DNA of 64,000 nt. It comes from Rhynchobatus australiae (taxonomy: Eukaryota). The DNA lies in assembly GCA_034780895.1 (NCBI GenBank), contig JAUZTB010000001.1, forward strand, positions 52,644,749 through 52,708,748. Reading direction: 5' to 3'. The notes beneath the pieces were generated by a model, which worked only from the letters and a program-made list of their open reading frames with translations, made no database searches and was not told where the DNA came from. This document shows, piece after piece, positions 37,240-61,300 of this stretch (position 1 is its first letter; each line of letters begins with the position of its first letter). Made by a program: the position numbers and the translations under genes.

Positions 37240-37850
37240 TCTTTAATGCAGGTTCGCCCGCAGCTCTGCTGGGAACCGAACTCGTGTCTCCCGCGGTAAA
37301 GAGGCGGCAGCCCATTCCGGGGCGAGATACGGGTTCGCAATGCGGGGGGGGAAGCAGCCACGACCAACAGAAAGAGCCGCCCGGTGGGGGAGGAGGGATG
37401 AAGGGCTGGGGAGGGCCTGGAACCCAACCGCCCCGACTTCGCTTTTACCTTCCACCCGCTGCTCGGCGGAGGCGCCAGACACCGGAAGGGGGAGGAGGAG
37501 AAGCGGCGGCTTGACGCGCAGGGGCTCATGGTCGGCCGGCTGCGTTGTCAAGGAGACGGCGCCCGTTAGTAACAAGGGGGCGGGCGGGAGGGAGGAGAGG
37601 CGCCGGTGGGCGTGGTCGGCCGGCTGCGTTGTCAAGGAGACGGCGCCCGTTACTAACGGAGGGACGGGCCGGAAGAGAGGCGCCGGTGGGCGTGGTCGGC
37701 CGGCTGTGTTGTCAAGGAGACGGCGCCCGTTACTAACGGACGGGCGGCCGGCGACATCGGGGCACCGGCTCCGCAGCAGGGTCGGCCCCAGCATTACTGC
37801 AAGCTCGGGAGACAGACGGCTGGCTCCAGCGACTTGATTCCCCAGCTGCA
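37240..37850. promoter_or_regulatory. CpG-island bidirectional promoter between the nucleotidyltransferase gene (-) and ANKAR (+)
   Basis: CpG-dense segment between two divergent genes. Candidate minus-strand non-coding exon 1 ends at 37449 (GAAG|GTAAAA). ETS motif ACCGGAAG at 37481, GC boxes and three X-box-like motifs. Confidence 0.75.
37529..37741 (+). repeat. Three-copy ~80-84 bp tandem repeat in the CpG island
   Basis: Core TGGTCGGCCGGCTG(C/T)GTTGTCAAGGAGACGGCGCCCGTTA(G/C)TAAC starts at 37529, 37613 and 37693. Confidence 0.95.
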
Positions 37851-43368: not shown

Positions 43369-46300
43369 ATGGGCAAGCAAAATAATGTGGAAGCCAATTT
43401 GGAAGTGCTGATGAATGCAAGTGCTAACCTTGGAAAATATAATCTGACTGATCTGCAAGAATTACTCGCCACAGCCACCTGCAGCTGGCTTCAGCCCGCT
43501 GAAGAATTTCAGTATCCAGTGGACTTCCCCACTGGATTGTCAAGCCAAATGAAAGATTTCAATCATTCCAATGTTATTGTTCTTGCTCCAGTGGTACCAG
43601 ATGCTCCATTTAATTATAAAGAATTCCAACAAATTCTGAGGGAATTAGTGGTGGGTATTTATGTTATGAATCAAGTTCCATCTATTTATATAGATGGCAA
43701 TTTTGATCACAGTTCCTCATGCCTTTTGTCGCCTGCTTACCATGATACACTAATTGGGCAAATTTTGATAAACGTGGACTACACAATGAAAGCACTTTGG
43801 CATGGAGCCTACATGTCAAAGGAAAAAAGGATGCGCTTTTCAGAACACTGGCGCTCAAAGGAAGATGTCCTTTCCGAATTTCTTAAAGCAGGTAATGAAC
43901 ATTTGCATTTGTTGAATATAATATTTTGCCAAATACTGAAAGATGTGCAGCAGTAGATATGGAAAAATCTATTGCTCGGGATAATCTTTAAAGCATGCAT
44001 ACAATTGTGCAATTAATATTTTAGAAAATACAGAAACATTTTGGTTTACACATATTTCATTCTTAGACAGGCTGGAATTCAGATGAATGTGTGCCCTGGA
44101 AAATTGTTTTGAGGAGCATTAACTTTGAGTTCATAACACATTTACACATAGTAAAAATTCTCACAAAGGCAGATCACAAGAAAGTTATTGTGGAAAACCA
44201 GAGACAGATTATGAAAAATTGGGGTTCACAACAAAGTTGTGGACTGTATTACCACAATAAAATATGAATATATCAAATGCCTTAATATATAGTGACATTA
44301 AATATTTTACACAGTGCATTAATAAATAAAACCTAGCATGCAATATCAAATTTTACCACACACATCTAAATTAAACAACTACTGCAGGAAGATAATTCAG
44401 ACACATGAGTATTTTTAATACATATTTCANNNNNNNNNNNNNNNNNNNNNNNNNNNNNNNNNNNNNNNNNNNNNNNNNNNNNNNNNNNNNNNNNNNNNNN
44501 NNNNNNNNNNNNNNNNNNNNNNNNNNNNNAATACATATTTCACAATGTACCTACACCACAGCAAGTGGTTGTAAGAAAAATATAGGCAATACTGATAGCC
44601 TCAAGCTCAAGTCTTGACCTTAGCTCCACCTTCCTGCTATTCCCTATTGCCCTTGATTCCCCTATAAACTAAAAATCTGTTTACCTCAGCCTTAAGTATA
44701 TCCAGTGATTCAACCATTACAGCTCTTTGGCATAAACAATTCCAAAGATTCAACATCCTTTGAGAAAAGAAATTATTTTGCCGTCTAAATTTCCCCCACA
44801 TTGGAAACATCCTTTTGGTATCTACTTTTTCAGCCCCCCTCAGAATCTTAGATTTTTCAATATGTAAGATTCAATCCTATCAACTCCAATGAGTAGAGGC
44901 CCACCTGCTTAAGCTTTCTTCTTATGTCAACTCTTTTATCTTAGGAATCAAGCAGGTGAACCTTCTCTGAATTGCCTTCATTGCAAATGTATCCCTTCTT
45001 AACAAAGAGATTGAAACTATCTGCAGTACTCCAGTTGTGTTCTCACCAAAAATGTTGCAAGACTTCTCTGCTTTTATACTCAAATGCCTTTGCAATAAAG
45101 GTTAACATTCCACTTGCCTTCCTAATTACTTGATAACTTGCATGGTGACTTTGTGCTTCATGTACAAGGAGCTGAATCTTTTTGTGGATCAGCATTCTAT
45201 GGTCTCTCCCTAAACAGTATTCTGCTTTATATCAACTACCAAAGTGGATAATTTCACATTTCCCTACATTGTAACACCACAGTTTTGCCCATTCACAAAA
45301 ATCCATATCCCTTTGCTGACTCTGTTGTCTTCCAATAATTTACCCTCCCATCTACCTTTGTTTTTTCAGGTCATTTGTCTAAAACACTGTAAATATTAAT
45401 GTATTGCAGTGGCTCAAATCCCATAAGTCATTCTTCAATTTGCCCTCTTATTAACAAATCTGAATACATTTGATAAAACTGATGTTAAATCCATAGTCAT
45501 TGAAAATACTTGACTCTGCAGTTCAGCTACTATTGTATGTTTAACATTCTGTCCCATCAAATTAATGAATTTAATTTCACAAGTATTTGATGAATGGTAA
45601 GAAGGATTACCTTTGCTGTCTTGTACAAATTTAGCCATACGATCAGCTAAAAGTAGATGAAGTTGAGCAATCAACACTGAAGTAAATTGTAAATTGTTGT
45701 CACATGTACCGAGGTACAGTGAAAAACTTTGTTTTGCATGCCATCCATACAGAACATTTAATTACAATAGTGCATTGAGGTAGTATATGGGAAAACAATA
45801 ACAGAATGCAGAATAAAGTGTTACAGTTACAGAGAAAGTACAATGTAGGCAGACAATAAGGTGCAAGGCCATAACGAGGTAGACTGTGAGGTCAAGAGTT
45901 CATCTTATCATGCTAGGGCACCATCCAAAAGTCTTATAACAGCAGGATAGAAGCTGTCCTTGAGCCTGGTAGCAGGTGCTTTCAGGCTTTTATATCTCCT
46001 GCTTGATGGAAGGGGTGAGAAGAGAGAATGTCCAGGGTGGGTGGGGTCTTTGATTATGTTGGCTGCTTTACCGAGGCAGTGAGAAATATAGATAGAGTCC
46101 ATGGAGGGGAGGCTGGTTTCTGTGATGTGCTGGGCTGTGTCCACAACCTTCTGCAGTTTCTTGTTGTTACGGCAGAGCAGTTGCCATACAAAGCCATGAT
46201 ACATCTGGATAGGATTCTTTCTATGGTGCATCGATAAAAATTGGTGAGGGTCAAAGGGGACATACCAAATTTCTTTATCCTCCTGAGGAAGTAGAAGCAC

Positions 46301-49300
46301 TAGTGAGGCTTTCTTGGCTGATATTCACTTCTAGGAACTTGAAACTCTCAACCCTCACAACCTCAGCACCATTGAGGTAGACAGGAGCATGTATATCGAT
46401 TAGCGTAATGCTTTACAGCGCCAGCAACCTGGGTTCAATTCCAGCTGCTGTCTGTAAGGAGTTTGTATGTTCTCCCCGTGTCTGCATGGGTTTCCTCCAG
46501 GTGCTCTGGTTCCCTCCCATGTTCCAAAGACGTACAGGTTAGGAAGTTGTAGGCACACTACATTGGCATAAGAAGCGTGGCGACACTTGTGGACTTCCCC
46601 CAGAACACTATGCAAAAAGATGTATTTCACTGTGTGTTTCGATGTACACATGACTAACAAAAATATCTTATCCTATCAATGACCAACTCTTTTGTTTTGC
46701 TGACTTTGAAGGAAAGGTTGTTGTCATGACACGGTGTCACAAGGCTCTCTATCTCCTTCCTGTGCTCCAATTCATTGTTATTTGAGATTTGGCCCACTCT
46801 GGTGGTATCATCTGTTAACTTCTAGGAGTTGGAGCAGAACCTAGCCATGCAGTCATGAATGTATAGGGAGTAAAGTAGGGGGCTGAGGACACAGCCTTGT
46901 GAGGCACCAGTGTTAAGGATAATTGTGGCGGAGCTGTTGCTGCCTATCCTCACTGATTTCATTCTATTAGGAAGTCAAGGATCCAGTTGCAGAGGGAAGT
47001 GTTGAGTCCCAGGTCCAGGAGTCTAGAAGCCTCCAAGTTTCTATAATGTGATGATCCTAACTGTTCATCATGTCTGTGGAATGCAAGTCCACATTCAATT
47101 AAGAATTTGCTAACTGTTACAACATTTTAAGGGGCATCGTTCTATTGATGGTGTTTTGATTGAAATTGCCATCTTTGTTTTGCATCTACAGTTGACTGTT
47201 GCCTTTACATACTGTATCCATGCCAGTGTACACTTCTGATGTTCCAGGCTTATCTCATTTCTTGATAGGTATTCAGGTTGTTTCCATTTGTTAAATGCTA
47301 TGATGATTGCCTGTGCTTTGGTAGGGAGAAATTAGCAGGAAGACCATTATCATTTCAAATAGATCATGAATAAACAAAACCAGTCCCAAATTCAAGATTC
47401 ACCATTGTGCAGTTGACAAAATATTCAGGTAGCAAACTCATCTTTCCCTCCAATCATCCTAGCAAAAGAAGAGAATATTTCACTGTTTTTGTTTTGACAA
47501 ACTGCTGAATCATTAGCAAAACAAAAAGTGCTGAAACTATTGACAATAATGCTTTAGTTATTTTGTTTCATCTGCACAATTTGGTCCCAGTTCATCTCTT
47601 TCCAGCTGTTCGTGGTCTGTGGTTTCAACCTCATGTTCCAGGCCTATCTTGTGAGAAATAGTCATACAGCACAGAAACGGGCCTTTTGGCTCATGCCGAC
47701 CATCGAGCCCTTCAGCTGCTGCTCCGGTACAGTAGTCTTTAGGTAGGTCTGTGCTCCTTGAACCCAGGTCCTCGTAGCCTGTACATCTATCTGCCCACAA
47801 GGAAGATGGAAGTTTCACGTAAGTGTGTTAGAGGAACAATTTTCAGCTTGGAACACAGTGGGAAAAGCTTTACTGTGTATCTATTTATACAATATGTTAT
47901 GCTGCGATCATGATCAAATTAATAATATGTCTGACAATACCATGTAAATACCAGATGCAAAATAAGTATAAAATGTTATGGAAACTATTAATTAAAATAA
48001 ATCACAATATAAACAAGTCGTATTATAGGTAGTTAAAAGATTTACTTCAACAAAATCTGGGACACTAAACAATGCACATGGACTGAATAACCTCCTTCTG
48101 TACTGTAATTTCTAATAGATTCTATGTTCGAAAAAGATAAAACAAAATAATATTTCTAATTAAGAATTTATTCTTTGTAAAATAGGTCTTATAGATATTT
48201 CAACTGATCCTGACTTTGAAGGAATCTATAGTGCTGATATATGCACTGATCCTACATATGATCCCAACAGCTGTGCAGAAGTGGAGTTATTTATGAAATA
48301 TGTGAACAATGTTTTACTTCAAATCAATCCTTACGTCACAAGTGTTAAGCAGCATCAAAATTTGTTCACATATGATGCAGCTTATGTTCTTAGTAATGCA
48401 GTTAGACTTACAGAAGAAGAAATTGATCTAGTAAAATATCAGAGACTACAGCAGAGACTGACTCTTCACAAGAAGCTTGTTGAGAAGTATTTGATGAGGA
48501 AAGCAGAGATCCACAGAGACATCACCTACCTCAAGTTAATTGCCTTCCTTGTGCCATTTTTTATTGCACTGAAGGGGAAGGGGAAAATTCCAGATTTGAG
48601 CAGACTCCTACCTCCATTTTCTGGTAAGGGTTNNNNNNNNNNACCATTAATATCATGTTTGGTAAATTTGAAAACTTTATACATAACGTTAGAATTGGCG
48701 GGGGGGGGAGGGGGAAGAATATAAATATTAGCACATAGTTTTCAAAAGTAAATCATTAGAACATGTATTTTTAATATTTACTGTCCATTTATTTTATTAA
48801 ATCTCTTTGTTCTACTTCAGCTCCTTCTAGTCATTTATCTCTTACTCTTAGAAAATGGGACAGGCTGCCCAGGACCCAGACCGAAAGAAGTTGCAAGCAA
48901 GCAATCTAGCAAATGTCTCCATATGACGTTTTTTCCAATAACTTTGCCTTCTGTTCTCTACCTTCTGTAGCAGAATAGCTGAGAACAAGAATGTGGACAA
49001 GTCATTGAGTCAAACAGGACAGAATTGGCCCTTCAGCCCACCAAATCCAGGCCAACCATCAAACAGCATTTACACAAAGTCTAATCCCATTTAAATGAGA
49101 AAACTGGCGTTGTACTCCACTGTTCTTACATTACCATTCATATTCTAGCGTATCAGACCAAAATTATATCCCAGCTATATTAGTGAGTTCTTCACCTTTA
49201 CAGCATTGATAATTCTCCTCATTCAAGTTTGATCTAAATAGATAACAAAGTTAAGAAGAAAGTTTTCAAACTTAATTAAATTTCTTCATTGGTTTTATTT

Positions 49301-52300
49301 TAAAAAGGCAGCCTGATGAAATTGCTTCTCAAACAATCTCTCATTAATATCATGAGTCAAAATTGATCCTTTTCTGTTTTTATTCACCAAAAGTTCTAAA
49401 AGTGCTATTGGGTACGTTAAGCTTGTAAACCTCAAATTTGAATGGACCTTCCAAGGCAGAGGGAGGTTGCCCAAATTCCAGAGGGAGAGCAGCTTGTACC
49501 AAACACCATGGTGCCTTGATTATCATGGAATCTCCATTTAGCCAGCACATAGTTATCTGTGAAGGAGCATGTGCACCTAAAACATTAATGTGGAGTCCAT
49601 CATTTACAAGAAAGTATGTTAGGCCCCTCTGAAGTTGTATACACTGATCTCTATTTTCAATGGTTTGTTTGCTTTGGAGACAGTTTCTTTACGCAGACGG
49701 ACAGAAGCCACTCCCCAGAACCTCTGTCACACACCCACCACAACCAGCCTCAATGAGGTAAATTTGCTAGACTTTCTGGAAATGTGCTTGAGGCCACAAT
49801 GATAAAACTGCACTCTTTCTAAATAAGACATACTTATCAAAAATAAAATTTGCATCTCTTGGACTGAAAACAGTGCATAATGGCACAGATGTTTACCAGT
49901 TTTTACATTTAAGGTAACTTTCCANNNNNNNNNNAAGTCCAAATATATTACATCTGCTCATTCAACCTTATTTATTCAGCTGGTTACCAGTGATGTCACA
50001 GTCTGCAGTTGCAGCAATTCAGGTTTGACACTGTGCCAACAGGAAGGAAGTCTGTTTAATTGATTGTCAGCTGTTTGGGCTGCGTCAGCTCAGTGAAAGT
50101 GAAGAAACTCTACTGAAGTGGTGACTGTGATGAATTAGAAGTTGCTATGCATCTGCACAGCACCAAAATTTCAGGCATTAATAACCTCTTAAGCTTCCAA
50201 TTTGGCAGGCAGGAAGTAAACACACACTTGTAACTGTGAATATGTTGCTCATATTGGATTGGTGTTTTCCAGTGGCATCAAGCATTTGGCAGAAAAATTG
50301 TAAACGAATAATTGTTAGTTAAATTACAGTGCAGCACATCTTGTCAGATCCATTCCGAGTTTAATCTGCCCCATTGCCATTTTTTATTCATTTACAAAAT
50401 TTGGGGAAAGGCAAGCGTCAACTATGCATCCCTATTTGCCCCTGAGAAGAGCTACCTTCCTAACACAGCAGAGCCACATAACCCAATTTCTAGACTCAAG
50501 TTCCTCAGTACTTTTGTCATAAGTCAGACCCTTAACACTGGCAGACTTTTAATTCAGGCATGTAACACACCTGCTCCAGTGCGTGAATGTTTCTTTTTAT
50601 TTTGGCAACCACAGTTGAAAGTAATCAAGGTGCAATCTGACTAAATTCTGAGTATGTAATTTTCAAGAACCCAAAGCTTAAAAGTGAAATTGGACAAATT
50701 TTTTAAAATCGGACAACAAGGGTTAATTTCCACATCAATAAATTAAATAAACTCAAATGAGAGAATTTATGATCTTAAAGATGATTTAATATTAATATGG
50801 GTATAGGTAATGTTAAAGCACTACATTAGGTTAAACTCTGGAAGTAAAACAAAACTTATGAAAGGTATATTAAGAACACATATCGGTCATCTTTTTCACT
50901 ATGAGTGATCAATATGTGGAATAAACTTTCTGACAATAGAGGAAAAAAGAATCCTGGAAACATTTAGAAAACAGCTAATTCCCATAATCAAGGTCATTTT
51001 AGAGTTTAACTGAATGAATTAAAATATTCAAAATCATTTTTCAACTGATAATTATTTGATCTTGCAAATGTTACGATTAAGAACTGTTTGCAGTTTGACA
51101 GTTGTAGAATTAAGTAGTTTAGAAGAATGAAGAGCTTTTTTACTTACAAAATTAATTGTCTTTAATTTCATTTAACAATATGAGGAAAATTTAATTTCAA
51201 AACAACAATGTGATATTTCAACATTATTCAGAGGTTTTCTTCACAATCACCATTTGAAGGGTGTGATTGAAGCACTATCACCATTCACGATTTCCCCTTT
51301 CTTTATCACAGATGAAAAGTTAAGAACTGAACGTGAGTTTCCACCCCTTCTTCTGGGCCCAGACTTCAAATGTAGACATTTTCAGTACAAAACAAATGAA
51401 TACTTCCATTTGCATGGTGGAATTGAATTTGACATAGGAACTCCTGCACTTGAGGACATGCCCAGTGCTATAAAGGTACTTCTCTATAGCTATGGTGTCT
51501 TTTCTCTGAATAAAGAAAATAGTTAGAAGCACATGACTGGGAAAATAAGTGCACATATCAAATTTCCTGATACAAGTCCTGCCCAGTTTACGAACACCCA
51601 ACTTATGTACAGTCCCAACATACAAACAAGCATTTGAGAGACCAGCAGGATGGATTTGCTGGCTGCTGCAGGCTGTAAGTGACTGTACTTTACACTAGCT
51701 GGAACTTTGCCATACTGAACCCAAGAAGAATACATTCTAGTTAACATATTGATGTCCATTTCGCGAATCCTATTTAGTGACACACCATCCCGGCCAGCAG
51801 TAGTGTCCTTTTTAAAACCATCAATAGCATTTGAAACCTTGTCTGCATTAAAATCTTTTGAAAGAATATTATTATCAGCCCAATATAAGCTTGGGCTAAA
51901 TTTGTTCATATCAACTTTATTATTAAGAATGGCAAAATGAGATTTAAAATGCTTCCCTAGACTATTCCTATGGTATAACTGACCTCTGCAGGCATCCACT
52001 GCCATGTGGGAACTCAGTTCTCAGCCACATTTCTGACTTGCGAACTGTTTGGGTTATGAACAGTTCTCAGGAGCAGAACCCTGCTGTAACCGGGAGGACC
52101 TGTANNNNNNNNNNNNNNNNNNNNNNNNNNNNNNNNNNNNNNNNNNNNNNNNNNNNNNNNNNNNNNNNNNNNNNNNNNNNNNNNNNNNNNNNNNNNNNNN
52201 NNNNNNNNNNNNNNNNNNGCTCCAAAAGGATTAGAGGAGAGGGTGAGGAAAGTTATCCCAATCCCAATTGCTGTTCACTGGTCCTTGCTGAGATTCTGTA

Positions 52301-55300
52301 TACTGTGATCATCATGTGTTAATTCAAGTAGTTTAGGGTGAATTGATCCTTGTAATCAAAATGCGTGCTGATTCTGTCTACGTAGATCTAGGAGGAACAA
52401 CTAGAGATTTTTTGGTGTCAGGAGTAAAAAGTGGAAATTTCCTTTTTATATCAAATATTTAACCAGTACCTATAATGCTGCAAAATTTCCCAGACAGATG
52501 TGTATTTTAATGTAACACAAATAAGAAAGTCCTGATGTATTACTATGAGAAGCTATGGTGTTGTCTATCACACCATAAACCTCTTGCTTTGGAAGGCATA
52601 ATGAGGTCAAAGGCCATAAAAATTGCCCCTTTTTCCACTGGTTCATTCCAGCTGGTGTCAAAATATGCCTTTCCAAATTCTCCCTTTTTCTTGGGCTTTG
52701 AAGAATCAAAAAAAACACCTCTGGGTAGTGTAAAAAGAACCAGTCCGGTCTTGGTCATTGTCTACCAATTTGATTTAGATTATGAAGATTTAGATTATGA
52801 ATATATAGATTTTGTACCAATGAAAAACTGAGCTTGAGGAAAAGGCCAAATAATTATTATTGAATCTATTTAAACATGTAACAATTATCAAAAGTTACAG
52901 GGAAGGGCAAATTTAACAGCATAATTATTTATAGAAATGTGATTGATTTTTTGAATTTATGTTTAGAACACTGCAAATAAAACTTTATTATACATTGTAT
53001 AATCATTGCTGATTTGTTACAGATTGCCTTTGATGATATCTGTTCCCAAGCTGTGCACTATTTGAAACATTTATTCAATCCTGACATGTTACTCAGAGGC
53101 CAATATACCATACCTATTATGCAGTTTAATGGGAAAAGGTAGGTGGGAAACTGACCAAAAAAAGTTCTCATTTTATTGCAAAAACTGAAATGCACATACT
53201 ATAGTGTTTACAAAGATTAATAACTTTTATTCCAGCTCTTTTTTAGAACTCTCCAGTTCTTTTCTCTCTGTGAACAACATATGCTAATCATGTGGCTCTG
53301 CTAATACTACTATTAAATTTTGTTCTGATATTGTGGCACACAATTAAAAAAGAATTCCTTTGTCATTTTGTCACTTAGACAAATGAACACAAAAGAGTAC
53401 TGTATTAAAATAAAAAAAATGAAATATATTCCTTAATTGTGTGGCACTTTCAAATATATATTTCATTTATTTATTGAAGTTTATACTGATTAGAATATCT
53501 CTTCTGAATTGCTATAGTGATCCATCACTAATTATACAGATTGGTATGATTTTAATTAACAAGATTTAAAAATAAAATTATTATTGATAAAACAAGTGTG
53601 TAACTTTTGTTGAATCAATGTATTTATTATTTGTTGTTTATGATCTACATCTGCTTCTGTCTAATCCTAATTCTTATTGGGACAGAATTAACTCATTAAG
53701 CCAATCTATGTAAATTTACATTTAATGGGAAATTGCACAGAAGATTTCATAATTTATAATCCATCACAGTTACATTAAATTTAGTCAGTTCTAATCACTG
53801 TAATTGTGTATAATGCTATTTAGCATCCCAGCAGACTCAAAGTACTTTTACTTTGAAGAAGTGCAAGGAGCAGAAGATATTAATTTCTTCAAATATTAGA
53901 TGCACTTACAAATATAGCTTTCAGAAAATGAATATTACCACCAACACACAACTACAAAATTTTATCAATCTGTCTTCTAGGTAAGCATTTGCAGATGGTG
54001 AAAATTCTTTGTTGACCCATCTTCCAGGATGAATACTGTCAGATTCCTGACTAAATTACTTAAGTAATGATGCATTTGATAGCATCATAATAAGGATTAG
54101 AATGCTTGTTCTAGTCATTTCTGTGTTAGTTGATTCTCCTGAGAATCCAATTTATTCTGGTTGTCATTTTGAAGAATGATCTAACTGTGAGAATTATTAT
54201 GGATTTCCATAGCTTAAGAGGGAATCTTGAAAGTATTATAATGATACAGCAGACCATTGTAATCATGCAAGGATATCACACCCTAGTAGAGAAAGACCCT
54301 CAAGCATTCCCACCACAAGAAAGGGTAAACTTGCATGAATGAAAACAAGTCACAAACAAGGGAAAATCACACAGCTGGGTGACTGAATTGAAGAAATGAT
54401 CAATTAGATGTTCCAAGGACAATCTGTCCTAATTGCTGATTTAATTTGGAATCAGGGGTTCTGCTGCCAGCTGGTTTTAGCTAATACAAGTTTTTTTTAA
54501 CCATTGTTCTAGAAAATTTAAAGATTGCTGAGCTCAAAGGTCTTATTGCCTGTACTGCCAATTTCTACCCTACTCTTACTTTCTAAAGGTCCTTGTCCGA
54601 CAATTTCTCTTCCCTTCCTGACTCCTGTGTCTCTATCATAGGGAATGGGTTATCAAACAATATACTTTAAAAGCCCACAAACTCCCACATGTATTCATCT
54701 ACATCTCTTCTTCTACTCTACATCCTGTAAAGATTCTAATCCATTCTCCCAGTTTTCAGCTATGTCATATCTGTTTTCAGTTTCCACTATCTGAAATGTC
54801 TCCCCTTTACCTTGACTTCCCCTCCAGCATAATTGACAGTGCTGGAGAAGGCAACGCCCACCTCACAGGTGAGCGCGGTCAGGCCTCGGACTGCAGGCCG
54901 CCTGGGGATCAATGGCGCTGCGGGAGCTCGAGCGGCGCCTGGATTCGCTGGGCTTGGAGCAGGGCAGCAAGGTGGGCCGGGTGGCGAGGCTGGAGGCGGG
55001 CAAGGCCAAGGAGTTGCACTGTACCCCGGTGCAGGTGCTGGGCCACGGCGCCTTTGGGGATGCCACGCTGTGCCAGCGTACCGAAGACTACAAAGGGCCA
55101 TTCGGCAGGAATGAGAGACTTGTGTTTTTGTTCTTGCTGGAACATGGCTGAATGACAACATCCCGGACACTCTATAGAGCCGACAGAATAATATTGTTTT
55201 TTGGCAAAACCTGCAGAGGTGGCCCCTTCCTGTGTATATCTAATGACTGCTTGGACACCCGCTGTATCAGCATGTTCATTTTGAGCTGCTTTTGTTTGAG

Positions 55301-58300
55301 TTTTTTTTATGCTGTTGTCTTTTTGTCTTTTTGTTTTCTTTCTTCTTTTTTTTTCTTAAATGTGTTTTGCACCTTGATCTGTGGAGTATGGTATTTTGCT
55401 CCCATGTGTGCTGAACGTATATGTGGAAGTGACAATAAAATTGATTCTGATTCTGATTCTGATCTGTTCCATTTCCTGCAACTCAACCCTTGACTTTTCT
55501 CCTCCCACCAGAGTAAGTACAAGATTTCCCTTCTCCTCACCCTCCACCCAATCAATCCCTACATTTAATGGATTACTCTCCATAATTTTGTTCTTTGAAA
55601 AACTCATTTGCTCTTCCATCTCCACTAAAATCCTCTGCTCGCAGCTTCATCCCATGTAATTTCAGGAGATGCATAATCTGTCCTATGACTTCACCTCCCA
55701 CAGTACAGGGACCCAACATTCCTTCCAGGTAAAGTAGTGATTTACTTGTACTTCCAATTTGGTGCACTGCAATTGTTGTGTACAATATGGGCCCCTCTGT
55801 ACTGGAGAAGCTAAATGCTGATTGGGTGAGCACTTCACAGAACAACTACATTCAAACTAAGGGAGACCCTGACCTTGCAATCACTTTAATTCTCCATCCT
55901 AATCCTAATCTGACCTCTTTGCATTTGGCATCTGATAGTGTTCCAATGAAGCCAAATGTAAATTGATGAACAATATCTCACCTTCTATTTTGGCACATTA
56001 CAGCCCTGAATGCTGAAATCACCCAATTAAAATAATCCATCATTCAAGTCTGAGTCAGAACTGCCAGAGTAGTGTAGCAGTTAGCATAATGCTTTACAGC
56101 TCCNNNNNNNNNNNNNNNNNNNNNNNNNNNNNNNNNNNNNNNNNNNNNNNNNNNNNNNNNNNNNNNNNNNNNNNNNNNNNNNNNNNNNNNNNNNNNNNNN
56201 NNNNNNNNNNNNNNNNNNNNNNNNNNNNNNNNNNNNNNNNNNNNNNNNNNNNNNNNNNNNNNNNNNNNNNNNNNNNNNNNNNNNNNNNNNNNNNNNNNNN
56301 NNNNNNNNNNNNNNNNNNNNNNNNNNNNNNNNNNNNNNNNNNNNNNNNNNNNNNNNNNNNNNNNNNNNNNNNNNNNNNNNNNNNNNNNNNNNNNNNNNNN
56401 NNNNNNNNNNNNNNNNNNNNNNNNNNNNNNNNNNNNNNNNNNNNNNNNNNNNNNNNNNNNNNNNNNNNNNNNNNNNNNNNNNNNNNNNNNNNNNNNNNNN
56501 NNNNNNNNNNNNNNNNNNNNNNNNNNNCCAGTTAATCTCTTTTGGACTGTCTCCAAGGCTACCATATTCTTTTTTAGGTAAGAGGACCAAAACCATGTAC
56601 AATACTCCAGGTGTGGCCTCACCAACATCCTGTACAATTATAACAAAACTTCCCTATTTCTAAACTCCAACCCCTCTGACATTAACAGTTTTCCTCTCTC
56701 TTGGCAGGCGCTACCTGACCTGCTTTGTAGTTCAAGTATTCTCTTTTATTTCAGATTTCTGGCAACTGCAGTGTATGGATCTCACAGTTCCAGGATTTTT
56801 TTTTCTTTTTCCTCTGTTATCATTCATCTCCTTCTTTTACATCTCCTCGATCAGCTCAAAATACCAACCCTCACATTCTTTACCAGTTGGCACCATCATT
56901 CATTTTCTCTTGGTCCCCACCTTATCTCTCCACCCTTTCCCCTTTTCTGCAATTTAAAACATGTTTGCTCTCCAGCTTTCTCCAGTTTGATGAAAAATCA
57001 TTGGTGTTAACTCCTTCTCCACAGATGTTGCCTGACCTGTTAAGTATTTCTGGTATTTTCTGTTTTTATATCAGATCTTCAGCATCTGCATTCTTTTGTT
57101 TTTGAATTAAATATTGTTAGTTCTTATCGCACACAATTTTTAGTTGAAAATATATCACTGGGTCAAAGTTTTGGCACAAAATAATGTGATGGGAGAGTTT
57201 TCACATTCCAGGGTGCAGCAGTTCAGAAAAGTCACCTGAAATGGATGGCAAGGAAATTGTCAGTATGATTTGAATAACCCTTTCAAAGAGTTGGCACTGG
57301 CACCTTAGCTAAATGGCCATTTTCCATGCTGTGCAATTTTATTCATTCTATGACAAGGTCAGTGAATTAGACAAGGCTGAAAGTACAGGTTTTCTCTAAA
57401 TTTCAGATTAATATAATCTTAGCAATTTTACACAAAGGCAATCACTGATTTCACAAACATCATGTACAATGTATTGCAACCCTTTATGGCAACTTTGAAA
57501 GTACAGCTGTTACATGAAATAAGAGCTCATGAGGTTGGAGAAATGTATTAACATGGATAAAGAACTTACAGAAGAGAAAATAGACTGTAAATAAATGGGT
57601 CATTTGTCAGGTTGGCAAGTTGTTACCAGTGAGTGCCACAGAAATCAGTACTAGGCCCTAAGCAGTACACCATTTACATCAATGACTTAAAAGTGTAATG
57701 GATTCAAATTTTCAGAGAGAAGACTGAATATGAAAGTAACTTGTGAAGAAGACTGAAAGAGTCTACAAAGGAATATAATTGAGTGAGAAGGTAACAAATG
57801 GAAAATAAGGTGGGAACGTGTGAGGTTATACACTTTAATAAGGACAGAAAAACAGTGTATTTTTTAAACAGCAGGAAACTAATCAGTGCTGATGTATGGA
57901 GGAACTTTGGTGTGCTATTTCACAGGGTGCAGAAAGTAAACATGTAGGACAACAAGCAATCTTGAATGCAAATGGTAAATTGACCTCTATTGCAAGGGGG
58001 TTGGAATACAAAGGTAAGTCTTGCTGAAATCTTACAGGGCTTTGATGAAGCCTCATTTGGATTAGCTAAAGAAGGATGTATTTACCTTAGAGGTAATTTG
58101 GCCTAGGTCCAATAAATTGATTATTGGGATGAGGAGGTTATCCTTTAAAAAGAGATTGACTGTGATTGAAAATTGAAACATTGAAATCTGAACTAAAAAA
58201 CAGAAAATGCTGAAACATTCAACATGTCAGGCAGCATCTATGGAAAGACAAATAGAATTAACAAGAAGACTTAGTCAGAACCAATTTCTCTGGTTTTATA

Positions 58301-61300
58301 ATTACCCACAGCTATAGTATGAACTAGTGATGGGTCTTCAACTTGAAAGAGTCATTCAGAACTGAGGTGAGAAGACATTTCTTCATGCAGAGGATTGTAA
58401 ATCTGTGGGATTCTCTACATCAGAGATGTTCAGTCACTGAATATGTTCAACTTTCAGCTTAACAGATTTTTCAACATTAAAGGAATCAGAGGATATGGGG
58501 AACAGGCAGGAAAGTGGAATTAATGTATGTGGAACAAAAAACAAATCTGCATCTGTGGAGGAAAAGGAATGGTCGATGGTTCAGGCCAAGACTCTACATC
58601 AGGATGTGCTTGTGGCTTGGGCATAAATTCACATATACATATTTGTCACATATTTATTGGGAGCAAGGAATCTGCTTCTACTGGTACCCCACCTTGCTCT
58701 TGCCCCTCAGCTAGTGCATGCTCTGCCTTGTTATCCTGTTCTTTCGGTCATTAGGAGAGGAAACAGATCTCTCTTAAAACAGCAGGTTGGTGCATTATGG
58801 AGAACAAATTTGTCAGTTTTTCCACCTCAGACAAAGCTTGAAAGATAACAATTAAACTGTGTAGTCTTTGGAAATGCTAGAAGATCCTTAAAATTGAGTA
58901 GATCATTTCCTATTGGACTGCTTTCCTGCCAAATCTGAGCTCCAGAAATAGTGTTCTTCATTTATTGCCAAGGTCTGCACATGGATTTGGTGACACAGTA
59001 GCAGATTTTGTTTGCCTTTAATGAAACTTGAAATCTCGAAACCCTTGTTTGATCCTATTCATCATTCTCTACTAGGTCAATGTCATAAACTCTGAAAGAT
59101 GTCTTCATTGCAGTGAACTATCACTAAACTTAATGAACTTGTTTGTTGGAAGGTTCTTTGATATTAAAGAAGACCACAACTGGATAATAGATAAAGTTAT
59201 ACAAATGCATGCATTTCAAACCAGATTCATGGGACCTAAGATTGATTCTTCTGCATCTTCGGTAGCCCAGGGCACTAAAGCTAATAATAGTTTTGTCATT
59301 TCTATTCTAGCAAAGATAATGTGATTCAAACCAAAGACTGAATGTGTGATTTTGTGATTTCAGTAGCTTAAGGAAACTATGTGCAACATATTTATTTGCT
59401 GATATCTTTTTATTTTTAAAATAAGCACAGAGAATGCTGGAAATACTCAGCAGGTTTAGCAGGACTATGGAGAGAGAAACAGAGTTAACAAGGCCAGCCA
59501 TTGATTTATGGAAAAAATTCAGTCATTCACCTGAAGCATTAACACTGTTTCTCTCTCCACAAACATTGCCAGACCTGCTGAGTGTTTTCAGTGCTTTCTA
59601 TTTATATTTCTGATTTACAGCATCTGCAGTGTTTTGCTTTTCTTTTAGACTTTACTTGGTTTATACGAAATTTATGTTTCAAATTTTGTTCATTTTTGAA
59701 GTGTCTTGTGTTATTTTTACAGCTATTATGTAATCTGTATAGAACTAGAAAACCTCCTTCGGACAACTCAGAAATTTCAGTGGTGGGGAAGCATGAGTGA
59801 AACAGTCAGCATGCTCAAATCCAGCAAACTACCATTAAATGAAGACCAGATAACTGAACAAATAAAAAAAAAATTTGGTGCCAAAAAAGCTGCAAAGTGC
59901 AAGGTGCGTCACTTCTTTGTATTCTCAATTGATAGCACCTTGCCTCTGGGTTGTAGATTAATGTCACACTGCAGAGACTTGAGCAGAAATCTCTGGTTGA
60001 CAATCCAGTGCAGTGATGGGAATGCACTGCACAGTAGGAGGTAAACTTTTGGATGAGATATTAAACAAAGTCCGGCCTGCTTTTTCAAGTACATATAAAA
60101 GATCCATGTAAAAAAATATTTTGAACAATGAAAAGCAATTATTTCACATGAATAGTTATGGTGGGAAAGGTAGTATTGAAGCATTTTCTTGAATTGTTGC
60201 AATCTGTGCAGTGAGTTTGCAAGTAGTGTTCCAAGGGTTTGTCTCAGTATCATTAATAATAAATCACAAGATATCGGCCTAAAAATGTTACATTTTTTAA
60301 TGTATTTGAGTCCAATATCACCATCACAGTTGATACATTATGCCACAAACTGTGGAGTTCTTTGCACATCACATATGCACATCAATAGTATGGAGAGGTG
60401 GCATCAATTTTGTGCGATATTCATTTAATGCCACATTCAGATCCAAAAATAAACATAATATAAGCAGAATAACTGAAGAAGCGCTACACTTGTGCTATTT
60501 AAAGGGATTTTTTTTTTAGCAAGCATGTGTTTGTGGAGAGCTTGTTGTGCTCAACAAGGTTCAACTTTAGAACTTTTGAAATTCCGAGCATTTAATTTTC
60601 ATTGATGAGGTGAGACTGCTATATTTTTTGTACAATAAAGCTGCATAAATAATGGTGCCATTAGGACTCTTGGATGATCAAGAGCTGGACAAAAGGACCC
60701 AAAGGAAATCCCAGAAGGACAGAGGATCTCCAAGGTGCAGGAAGAAAAGAGCTCTGGTCACATGGATTTCTACCCTATGAATCTTCCTGCCTCTTGTTCA
60801 AGGAGCAATGGTTTCAGAGGATAAGATTTTCAAAGCATGTGCTCACTGGGATCTGCCTCCTACCTCAGGCAGATATTTGTACCACTTTGTCGATTGCTCT
60901 GCCTGTGGAGATGAAGATCGCAGTGGCCATGAACTTCTTAGCTTCTGTATCATTCCAGTTGGTGGCAACTGATGTACACTGCCACATGCTGCGGTCTGTA
61001 GAATATCACTGCATTTGTAACATCACAGAGGCTGTCTACTCAAGGATAAAATTTGTTTCCTCCTCTGAACAGAGAGCAGCAGGCAGTGCATGCTTCTGGA
61101 TTTACCTTTATATCAGGCTTCCCTAAGTTTTCAGGAATGAAAGATTGTGCACGTGAACCTAAGTCTCCATATATGAACCTTAATCTCTAAACAAGAAAGG
61201 ATTTCGTAGTGTGGAGTAAATGGGATGTGAGAACAAGGATTAGCATGGATCTTCACTATCTGCACTCCATTGCTAGTCTTTGTAACAGCGGATCCCATGA

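Follow-up and report, generated by a model that had tools for sequence, protein, structure and literature searches.

A short insert in an intron of ANKAR in Rhynchobatus australiae combines part of a second gene, NEK9, with part of a long interspersed nuclear element (LINE). It occupies positions 54842-55463 of the window, by which we mean the whole stretch of 64,000 nucleotides that was analyzed (assembly GCA_034780895.1, contig JAUZTB010000001.1, positions 52,644,749 to 52,708,748, forward strand). It is probable that the insert comes from a family of short, deleted derivatives of a Rex1-type LINE, that this LINE carries in frame a piece of NEK9 copied by reverse transcriptase (RT) from spliced mRNA at a point of microhomology, and that the LINE was autonomous and mobilized the short forms in trans. 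A sequence-only reading of the window had proposed instead that a NEK9 transcript was spliced into an intronic LINE and then retrotransposed. The full copies do not bear this out, for in them the NEK9 piece comes after a 5' end that belongs to the LINE. The AG|ACTAC junction that was taken for a splice acceptor is a 313-nt deletion at AGAC inside a longer NEK9-bearing LINE, and the leader upstream of 54878 has no match to the NEK9 locus and is the leader of the LINE.

Long copies of the NEK9-bearing LINE

Two loci (L059 and L070) carry ~310 extra bases at the point where NEK9 and LINE sequence meet in the short form. A search with the LINE linker gave 22 candidates, all 22 of which were scored: seven fall in a lineage that we call A, nine in a lineage B, five are truncated and one belongs to a sister family. 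NEK9 sequence is present in all 16 of the long copies that keep the upstream region. A long copy is composed, in order, of the LINE 5' end, a leader, the NEK9 5' untranslated region (UTR) and exon 1, GACAGCTC, the linker GKYVYS-QFLL, an endonuclease, an RT region, a 3'UTR and a (GATTCT)n tail. The NEK9 piece lies in frame inside the LINE 5' coding region, with ~210 nt of element sequence upstream of it.

In lineage A, exon 1 is followed by GACAGCTC, then by GKYVYSWQFLL and the endonuclease, and one copy (L117) is open for 328 codons across the junction. The NEK9 piece of lineage B is shorter and more diverged, and ends with the residues E-M-H-Y. Lineage B is without 87 nt that are present in A; because this gap has TACA at both bounds and the lost part includes the LINE-native GKYV, the A-like structure is ancestral. 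The consensus frames of both lineages are open through the endonuclease, and the endonuclease frame of L123 is 60% identical to P0108, which has a weak match to Exo_endo_phos below the cut-off. A gap-free 4.1-kb copy of lineage B (L147) contains RVT_1 and PF09004 and ends in the same (GATTCT)n tail, and a copy of lineage A (L121) is gap-free from the NEK9 exon into the RT N-terminal region. The A-type 3'UTR follows RT coding sequence in the 5'-truncated copies L087 and L115, as the B-type 3'UTR does in L147.

Some long copies have peculiarities of their own. L147 (G000:C65:38294700-38301700, minus strand) contains a minisatellite at approximately 1790-2355 of the element strand, with units of ~33 nt in the LINE open reading frame (ORF) that are absent from other copies and read in frame as ILKLD(K/Q)PAQR repeats. 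L124 (G000:C5692) consists of a lineage B 5' part fused to an inverted segment, from RT to tail, of the same family, similar to 5'-inverted LINE insertions. The NEK9 5'UTR and start codon segment is tandemly duplicated in the lineage B copies L126, L129 and L132, with up to four units in L129.

The parental gene and the junction

The parental NEK9 gene lies at G000:C1:145.05-145.10 Mb on the minus strand; its exon 1 ends ACCGAG|gt and its exon 2 starts ag|GACAACTCG. The family consensus matches the NEK9 locus solely at consensus positions 210-427, comprising ~45 nt of 5'UTR and exon 1, with 87% identity, and the first 209 nt of the consensus have no match there. Two points of the sequence-only reading are upheld by these comparisons. 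The peptide is that of NEK9, since a profile from nine family copies matched batoid Nek9 best (E 1e-20), and the homology stops at the end of exon 1, which in the parental gene has a GT donor directly behind the RTE codons. Nothing useful came from scanning the peptide against Pfam and PDB. Neither a full-length copy nor the lineage A consensus found a LINE in the 29.7-kb NEK9 region outside exon 1, of which 16,581 bases are N.

Tandem arrays beside NEK9 exons and an intronless NEK9-like frame were also seen. Just upstream of NEK9 exon 1 on G000:C1 (L081, 1750-2460), a GC-rich tandem array adjoins the 5'UTR, and similar arrays are found in intron 1 near both exons. Elsewhere (L074, G000:C127:69157703-69158527), an uninterrupted frame of 452 amino acids has 41% identity to the NEK9 kinase domain at residues 39-310, and is an intronless kinase gene or a retrocopy.

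The GACAGCTC that follows exon 1 in lineage A equals the GACAACTC of exon 2 at 7 of 8 positions and is unlike intron 1, with a chance probability of ~4e-4 at a fixed position. A NEK9 mRNA contig from run X2 aligns across the exon 1/exon 2 point that matches GACAGCTC. At the corresponding position, LINE relatives from other sources that lack NEK9 have R-D-N-(T/A)-G-K-Y, so that the target and the NEK9 mRNA shared microhomology, and the junction bases may be LINE-native as well. In either case the microhomology exists only with exon 1 and exon 2 joined, as in spliced mRNA. With exon 2 matched at 7 of its first 8 positions, the true junction favors capture of spliced NEK9 mRNA by RT over splicing into an intronic LINE. 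In the lineage A consensus, GACAGCTC recurs 267 nt upstream in the same frame (chance ~0.3% in that leader), which is at most suggestive of an 8-nt target duplication, since a third copy, matching at 7 of 8 positions, lies nearby and shows the leader to be internally repetitive.

We propose a model for the origin of these elements, in which capture by RT is the simplest reading. A nick in a genomic LINE copy would have primed RT on NEK9 mRNA where exon 1 meets exon 2; it would fit equally well if RT had switched template twice during reverse transcription of the LINE. The chimera would have kept replicating and split into lineage A, with the full exon, and lineage B, with the 87-nt in-frame deletion, a change of the NEK9 ATG to GTG and a new ATG in EMHY. 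Lineage A then yielded two short forms, S1 and S2, through deletions at microhomologies, with both LINE ends kept. Both routes of capture have analogs among known retrosequences: the joining of different RNAs by RT in tripartite retroelements made by double template switching (PMC2104539), and priming inside an RNA without a tail in tailless retropseudogenes (PMC5322556). Either would suit the NEK9/LINE junction. The cases described in the abstracts of those papers are individual retropseudogenes, whereas the NEK9 chimera founded a replicating LINE lineage.

Selection and probable autonomy after capture

Because both lineages carry NEK9 sequence, their divergence postdates the capture. The ratio of non-synonymous to synonymous substitution rates (dN/dS) between the A and B consensus sequences is 0.15 in the endonuclease (19 synonymous and 10 non-synonymous changes; Fisher p<0.0001) and 0.51, not significant, in the linker; in the RT region, where single copies were compared, it is 0.28-0.34. 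For changes private to copies the ratios are 0.77 and 0.58. The indels that separate A and B in the NEK9 segment (+1/-19 and -87) keep the frame. Purifying selection on the endonuclease and RT of A and B, together with these frame-keeping indels, makes it likely that the chimeric LINE stayed autonomous after the capture and made a working protein.

Sister families and LINE class

In 12 loci of two sister families, C and D, no NEK9 sequence was found at E values up to 1. The C and D loci share the linker motif; where their 5' end is intact, a short leader in most cases connects a CAAGATGGCG-like start with the linker. Linker identity between A/B and C/D is 42-53%. In a tree of 28 rows, which is without a non-Rex1 outgroup, C and D fall outside a single clade of A and B (support 100/99). 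Compared by eye, family D agrees with the first 400 nt, the part visible, of PriPec_Rex1-4, which is classed as Rex1, and another Rex1 consensus begins CAAGATGGCG (PMC13343379 supplement). Rex1 is without ORF1 and is most abundant in rays (PMC13343379).

The A/B elements resemble Rex1/Babar (PMC13343379; PMC6274825) in having an endonuclease and RT, no ORF1, a conserved 3'UTR, an oligonucleotide tail and the CAAGATGGCG start, and in their abundance in rays. Endonuclease and RT stand together without a separate upstream ORF in L147, which is a frameshifted copy, and the 3'UTR with its oligonucleotide tail gave 120 exact matches as against 0 in the control. Neither the five PriPec Rex1 entries nor a motif search of the supplement gave a NEK9-bearing consensus within the first 400 characters of each supplement sequence (PMC13343379). 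A metagenome scan for NEK9-free close relatives gave 30 pattern matches, 0 of which were confirmed.

The start codon and the captured exon

In the lineage A consensus the 5' AUG opens an ORF of only 11 codons, and the next AUG is that of NEK9, in the frame of the endonuclease. The NEK9 ATG is kept in five of the six A copies that cover it and in none of the nine B copies, eight of which have gained an ATG where ELHY had its Leu. This pattern suggests that the captured NEK9 segment would supply the start codon in both lineages. In lineage A, the LINE's own AUG would have been reduced to the 11-codon upstream ORF, and the NEK9 AUG is the predicted start of endonuclease-RT translation.

The kinase half of the exon (EELHY to RTE) is essentially unchanged in protein in lineage A, and of the residues that rays conserve in the N-terminal half, 5-6 are changed. 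Polarized, the contrast between the halves is 5-6 versus 0; the unpolarized count of 9 versus 1 (Fisher) overstates it. The signal is weak, and conservation of the kinase half could be due to constraint, later conversion or chance. In S1 the residues YIP later became CTP. Relative to NEK9 exon 1, all five of the changes at A in lineage A are A>G, and 5 of 22 A are changed as against 12 of 185 other bases (p 0.02). RNA editing was considered as a cause of this excess, but several of the sites have a 5' G, which ADAR disfavors.

A more ambitious proposal, which we put forward tentatively and regard as possible rather than probable, is that an autonomous vertebrate LINE took the NEK9 5'UTR, start codon and exon 1 as the working start and N-terminus of its endonuclease-RT protein, with the Gly-loop constrained in one sublineage and a new AUG within the exon in the other. 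If true, and with MAST2 and STK40 in SVA elements beside it, retroposons would have drawn 5' modules repeatedly from the GC-rich first exons of kinase genes.

Observations that weigh against this account

Several observations tell against the account given above. No gap-free full-length copy of lineage A was found; L141 and L142 join an A 5' part to the tail over a 100-N gap. L147, the gap-free B copy, carries frameshifts and its private minisatellite, and the A and B consensus sequences were built from just 7 and 9 copies, with B heterogeneous. Of the 5,535 nt of NEK9 intron 1, 3,889 are N, which limits the absence of LINE sequence there to the part that is sequenced, and no copy of the A/B lineage from before the capture was found that would fix the 5' junction or the origin of the ~130 nt of GC-rich leader. 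No chimeric NEK9-LINE protein of another species was found among 616 candidates; judged by best-stretch coordinates, none of 89 profile matches, 13 of which were inspected, extends over the NEK9 part as well as the linker. There is no signal of target-site duplication: in 34 copies with both ends, the mean longest flank repeat is 5.1 as against 4.6 in shuffled pairs. As to the start codon, the frame upstream of the NEK9 AUG is also open in both consensus sequences, and in L129 and L147 the leader frame is continuous from the LINE's own start position, so that the NEK9 AUG may be unneeded.

Alternative explanations

NEK9 exon 1 might have been spliced, in cis or in trans, to a cryptic acceptor in a LINE, with the LINE 5' end added later by recombination or template switch. 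It suits such an origin that the NEK9 homology stops no more than one base from the exon 1 donor, that there are precedents (PMC6139936; 10.1101/2025.02.02.635956), that most of NEK9 intron 1 is N, and that a native codon AGA before GAC would allow an acceptor which, with the loss of 1 nt, gives the observed junction. It is nevertheless unlikely. With the LINE 5' end upstream of the exon, two events are required; the match to exon 2 at 7 of 8 positions would be a coincidence; the AG|ACTAC junction is a later deletion, the skipped part of which reads AG..AG; and the LINE has no match, exon 1 apart, in the 13 kb of the 29.7-kb NEK9 region that are sequenced.

Less likely again is entry of the NEK9 piece into a genomic LINE at the DNA level, through break repair or gene conversion with NEK9 cDNA or the gene, and not through the element's own RT. 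Junctions with microhomology are typical of end-joining repair too; later conversion could also explain why the kinase half is closer to the gene than the N-terminal half. Against this, the match continues into exon 2 and not into intron 1, so that a cDNA would still be required, and the piece begins in the 5'UTR, as expected of an mRNA end.

It is very improbable that all NEK9-bearing copies were non-autonomous passengers of another Rex1 LINE and that the chimera never encoded a working protein. In favor of this, most long copies are gapped or deleted, none was found with an intact full-length ORF and in the A consensus a stop follows the 5' AUG after 12 codons. Against it, A and B show the purifying selection on endonuclease and RT described above, and both retain the NEK9 piece with its frame preserved by compensating indels. 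RT capture from spliced mRNA into an autonomous LINE is the reading that we retain.

The short-form family

The suggestion that the insert is one member of a NEK9-bearing non-autonomous family was well founded, for ~96 short copies are estimated in the assembly. Of the 111 candidates for the head query, 40 were scored, every one of them a match, and the 30 loci fetched match both sides of the short-form junction (30 of 30). A 24-nt pattern of this junction occurs at 72 places with two mismatches or fewer (control, 1), and would detect 42 of 56 fetched short copies. The estimate of ~96 is probably a floor, since many repeats adjoin N gaps. Among the loci fetched, NEK9-like sequence occurs at 74 distinct places, made up of 57 short copies, seven of lineage A, nine of lineage B and the NEK9 gene itself. 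Mis-assembly was rejected, since the same chimera is found at dozens of places with differing flanks.

Full short copies are ~800 nt long and start at GGGCAAGATGGCG, ~170 nt upstream of the start of the window copy; the median copy differs from the consensus by ~5% at non-CpG sites. Both S1 and S2 are derived from lineage A sequences that lost 313 nt at AGAC, a further 26 nt and the RT region. With both LINE ends, a deleted coding region and many dispersed insertions, they have the structure of non-autonomous, internally deleted LINE derivatives. A processed pseudogene or retrocopy was rejected on the LINE ends at both sides, the GATTCT tail, the ~100 copies and the lack of a target-site duplication signal; a short interspersed nuclear element was rejected on the absence of an Rfam match in four loci and a head common to the long LINE copies. 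All short forms with an intact 3' end retain ~200 nt of 3'UTR, and LINEs with stringent 3' recognition have been described (PMC3747384). In the last 109 nt of the window copy, hairpin folding is no better than in shuffled sequences (z -0.92).

A shallow contig from run X1, possibly of DNA, shows the same 313-nt skip, in which the skipped part reads AG..AG. Because the organism code of X1 differs from that of the run holding 95% of the NEK9 query words, a second species is likely to have the short form too. In runs X2, X7 and X11, of which X2 and X7 had NEK9 mRNA only, NEK9 and the LINE were not joined in any contig, which is not evidence of absence. At L048/L055 (G000:C79:10.487-10.488 Mb), two short elements point the same way with ~1 kb between them, and an N gap interrupts the upstream one.

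Comparison with known exon captures

The closest precedents are human SVA_F1, with MAST2 exon 1, and chimpanzee pt_SVA_D6, with STK40 exon 1, in which GC-rich first exons of Ser/Thr kinases were gained by splicing and which number 84 and 94 copies (PMC6139936). They resemble the NEK9 LINE in that a GC-rich kinase first exon is carried by a retroposon subfamily of similar copy number (~100 here). They differ in that the SVA exon replaces the 5' end of a non-coding element, whereas the NEK9 exon is internal and in frame in a protein-coding LINE. Where SVA_F1 joins an exon donor to an AG acceptor, the NEK9 junction continues into the match to exon 2, and where the SVA_F1 exon forms the 5' end of the element, ~210 nt precede the NEK9 exon. 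Similarly, 17 mRNA/LINE-1 5' chimeras, including RAP1GDS1-L1PA2, have host first exons in sense on near-full-length LINEs and are proposed to alter LINE regulation (10.1101/2025.02.02.635956). They are 5'-terminal, mostly single (four copies for RAP1GDS1) and often at splice donors, whereas the NEK9 capture is internal and fixed in a lineage that went on to split.

Host-exon capture was previously known as 5'-terminal, made by splicing, and mostly limited to single L1 copies or non-coding SVAs. The NEK9 capture is internal and in frame, and the protein-coding LINE lineage in which it became fixed has been under purifying selection since then. No such capture is among the precedents compared here, which are terminal or single-copy in the parts of the sources available, and a literature search, with most subscription journals, Repbase and Dfam outside its scope, gave no NEK9-bearing LINE. 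The stages are preserved, from the NEK9 gene through two long lineages to two short derivatives, alongside NEK9-free sister families, and with them the question how LINEs of a single ORF acquire new leaders and start codons becomes testable. There are also practical consequences, in that genes can be misannotated, and reads at NEK9 exon 1 wrongly mapped, because of the ~100 NEK9-like kinase fragments, and insertions common to several rays could serve as markers among rays.

The window copy and its surroundings

The extent of the insert, its ATG at 54912, the 58 codons as far as QRTE, the AATAAA at 55434 and the (GATTCT)3.5 tail were all seen again as first read. So was its position inside ANKAR: the host gene has 96% identity to Pristis ANKAR, and the insert lies in sense between exons at approximately 53017-53136 and 59721-59864, in an intron (53137-59720, plus strand) whose boundaries are approximate because the exons were placed by tblastn.

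The window copy is 5'-truncated. It begins at consensus position 174, so that ~170 nt are missing, including the CAAGATGGCG start, and what remains of the GC-rich leader of the element, as aligned in 41 copies, is its 3' end (54842-54877, plus strand, as are the parts that follow). The segment derived from the NEK9 5'UTR (54878-54911) has a private 11-nt deletion, and the decayed coding part of exon 1 (54912-55085) runs for 58 codons from the N-terminus through the kinase Gly-loop to RTE. The AGAC microhomology of the 313-nt deletion (55085-55088), identified by comparison with L059/L070 and the consensus and seen also in the X1 contig, marks where both the true NEK9/LINE junction and the LINE N-terminal linker were taken out. 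Beyond it lies the remnant of the LINE apurinic endonuclease (55089-55239), correctly recognized at the outset, which matches the endonuclease region of the long copies and is homologous to the frame of L123; it has the 26-nt deletion near 55169 and a private 2-nt deletion. The RT region is deleted between this remnant and a 3'UTR of lineage A type (55240-55442, with AATAAA at 55434-55439), and the (GATTCT)n tail follows with 3.5 units (55443-55463) and no evident target-site duplication.

The copy had been thought young on the strength of its retained CpGs. It matches the subfamily consensus at 558 of 607 aligned bases (92%) and keeps only 24 of 50 CpGs, and it is dead. The fused 79-codon frame is indeed open, but is no coding signal, as the 313-nt deletion puts it out of the endonuclease frame and the private 2-nt deletion shifts its end. 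The insert was also said to split an old Penelope fragment. Its flanks do form one older dispersed repeat (54555-55796, plus strand), roughly colinear across the insert: both match L179, L180 and L185 in order, and the left flank matches L181-L184 as well. Only a motif suggests that the repeat is Penelope-like, a label without Pfam support in five of five segments.

Other decayed fragments of non-LTR retrotransposons lie in ANKAR introns at 51523-52020 and 45908-47126, both on the minus strand, and one of them is Rex1-like by translation. Upstream of the first ANKAR coding exon found, positions 37529-37751 hold a GC-rich tandem repeat with a period of 80 and 2.8 copies.

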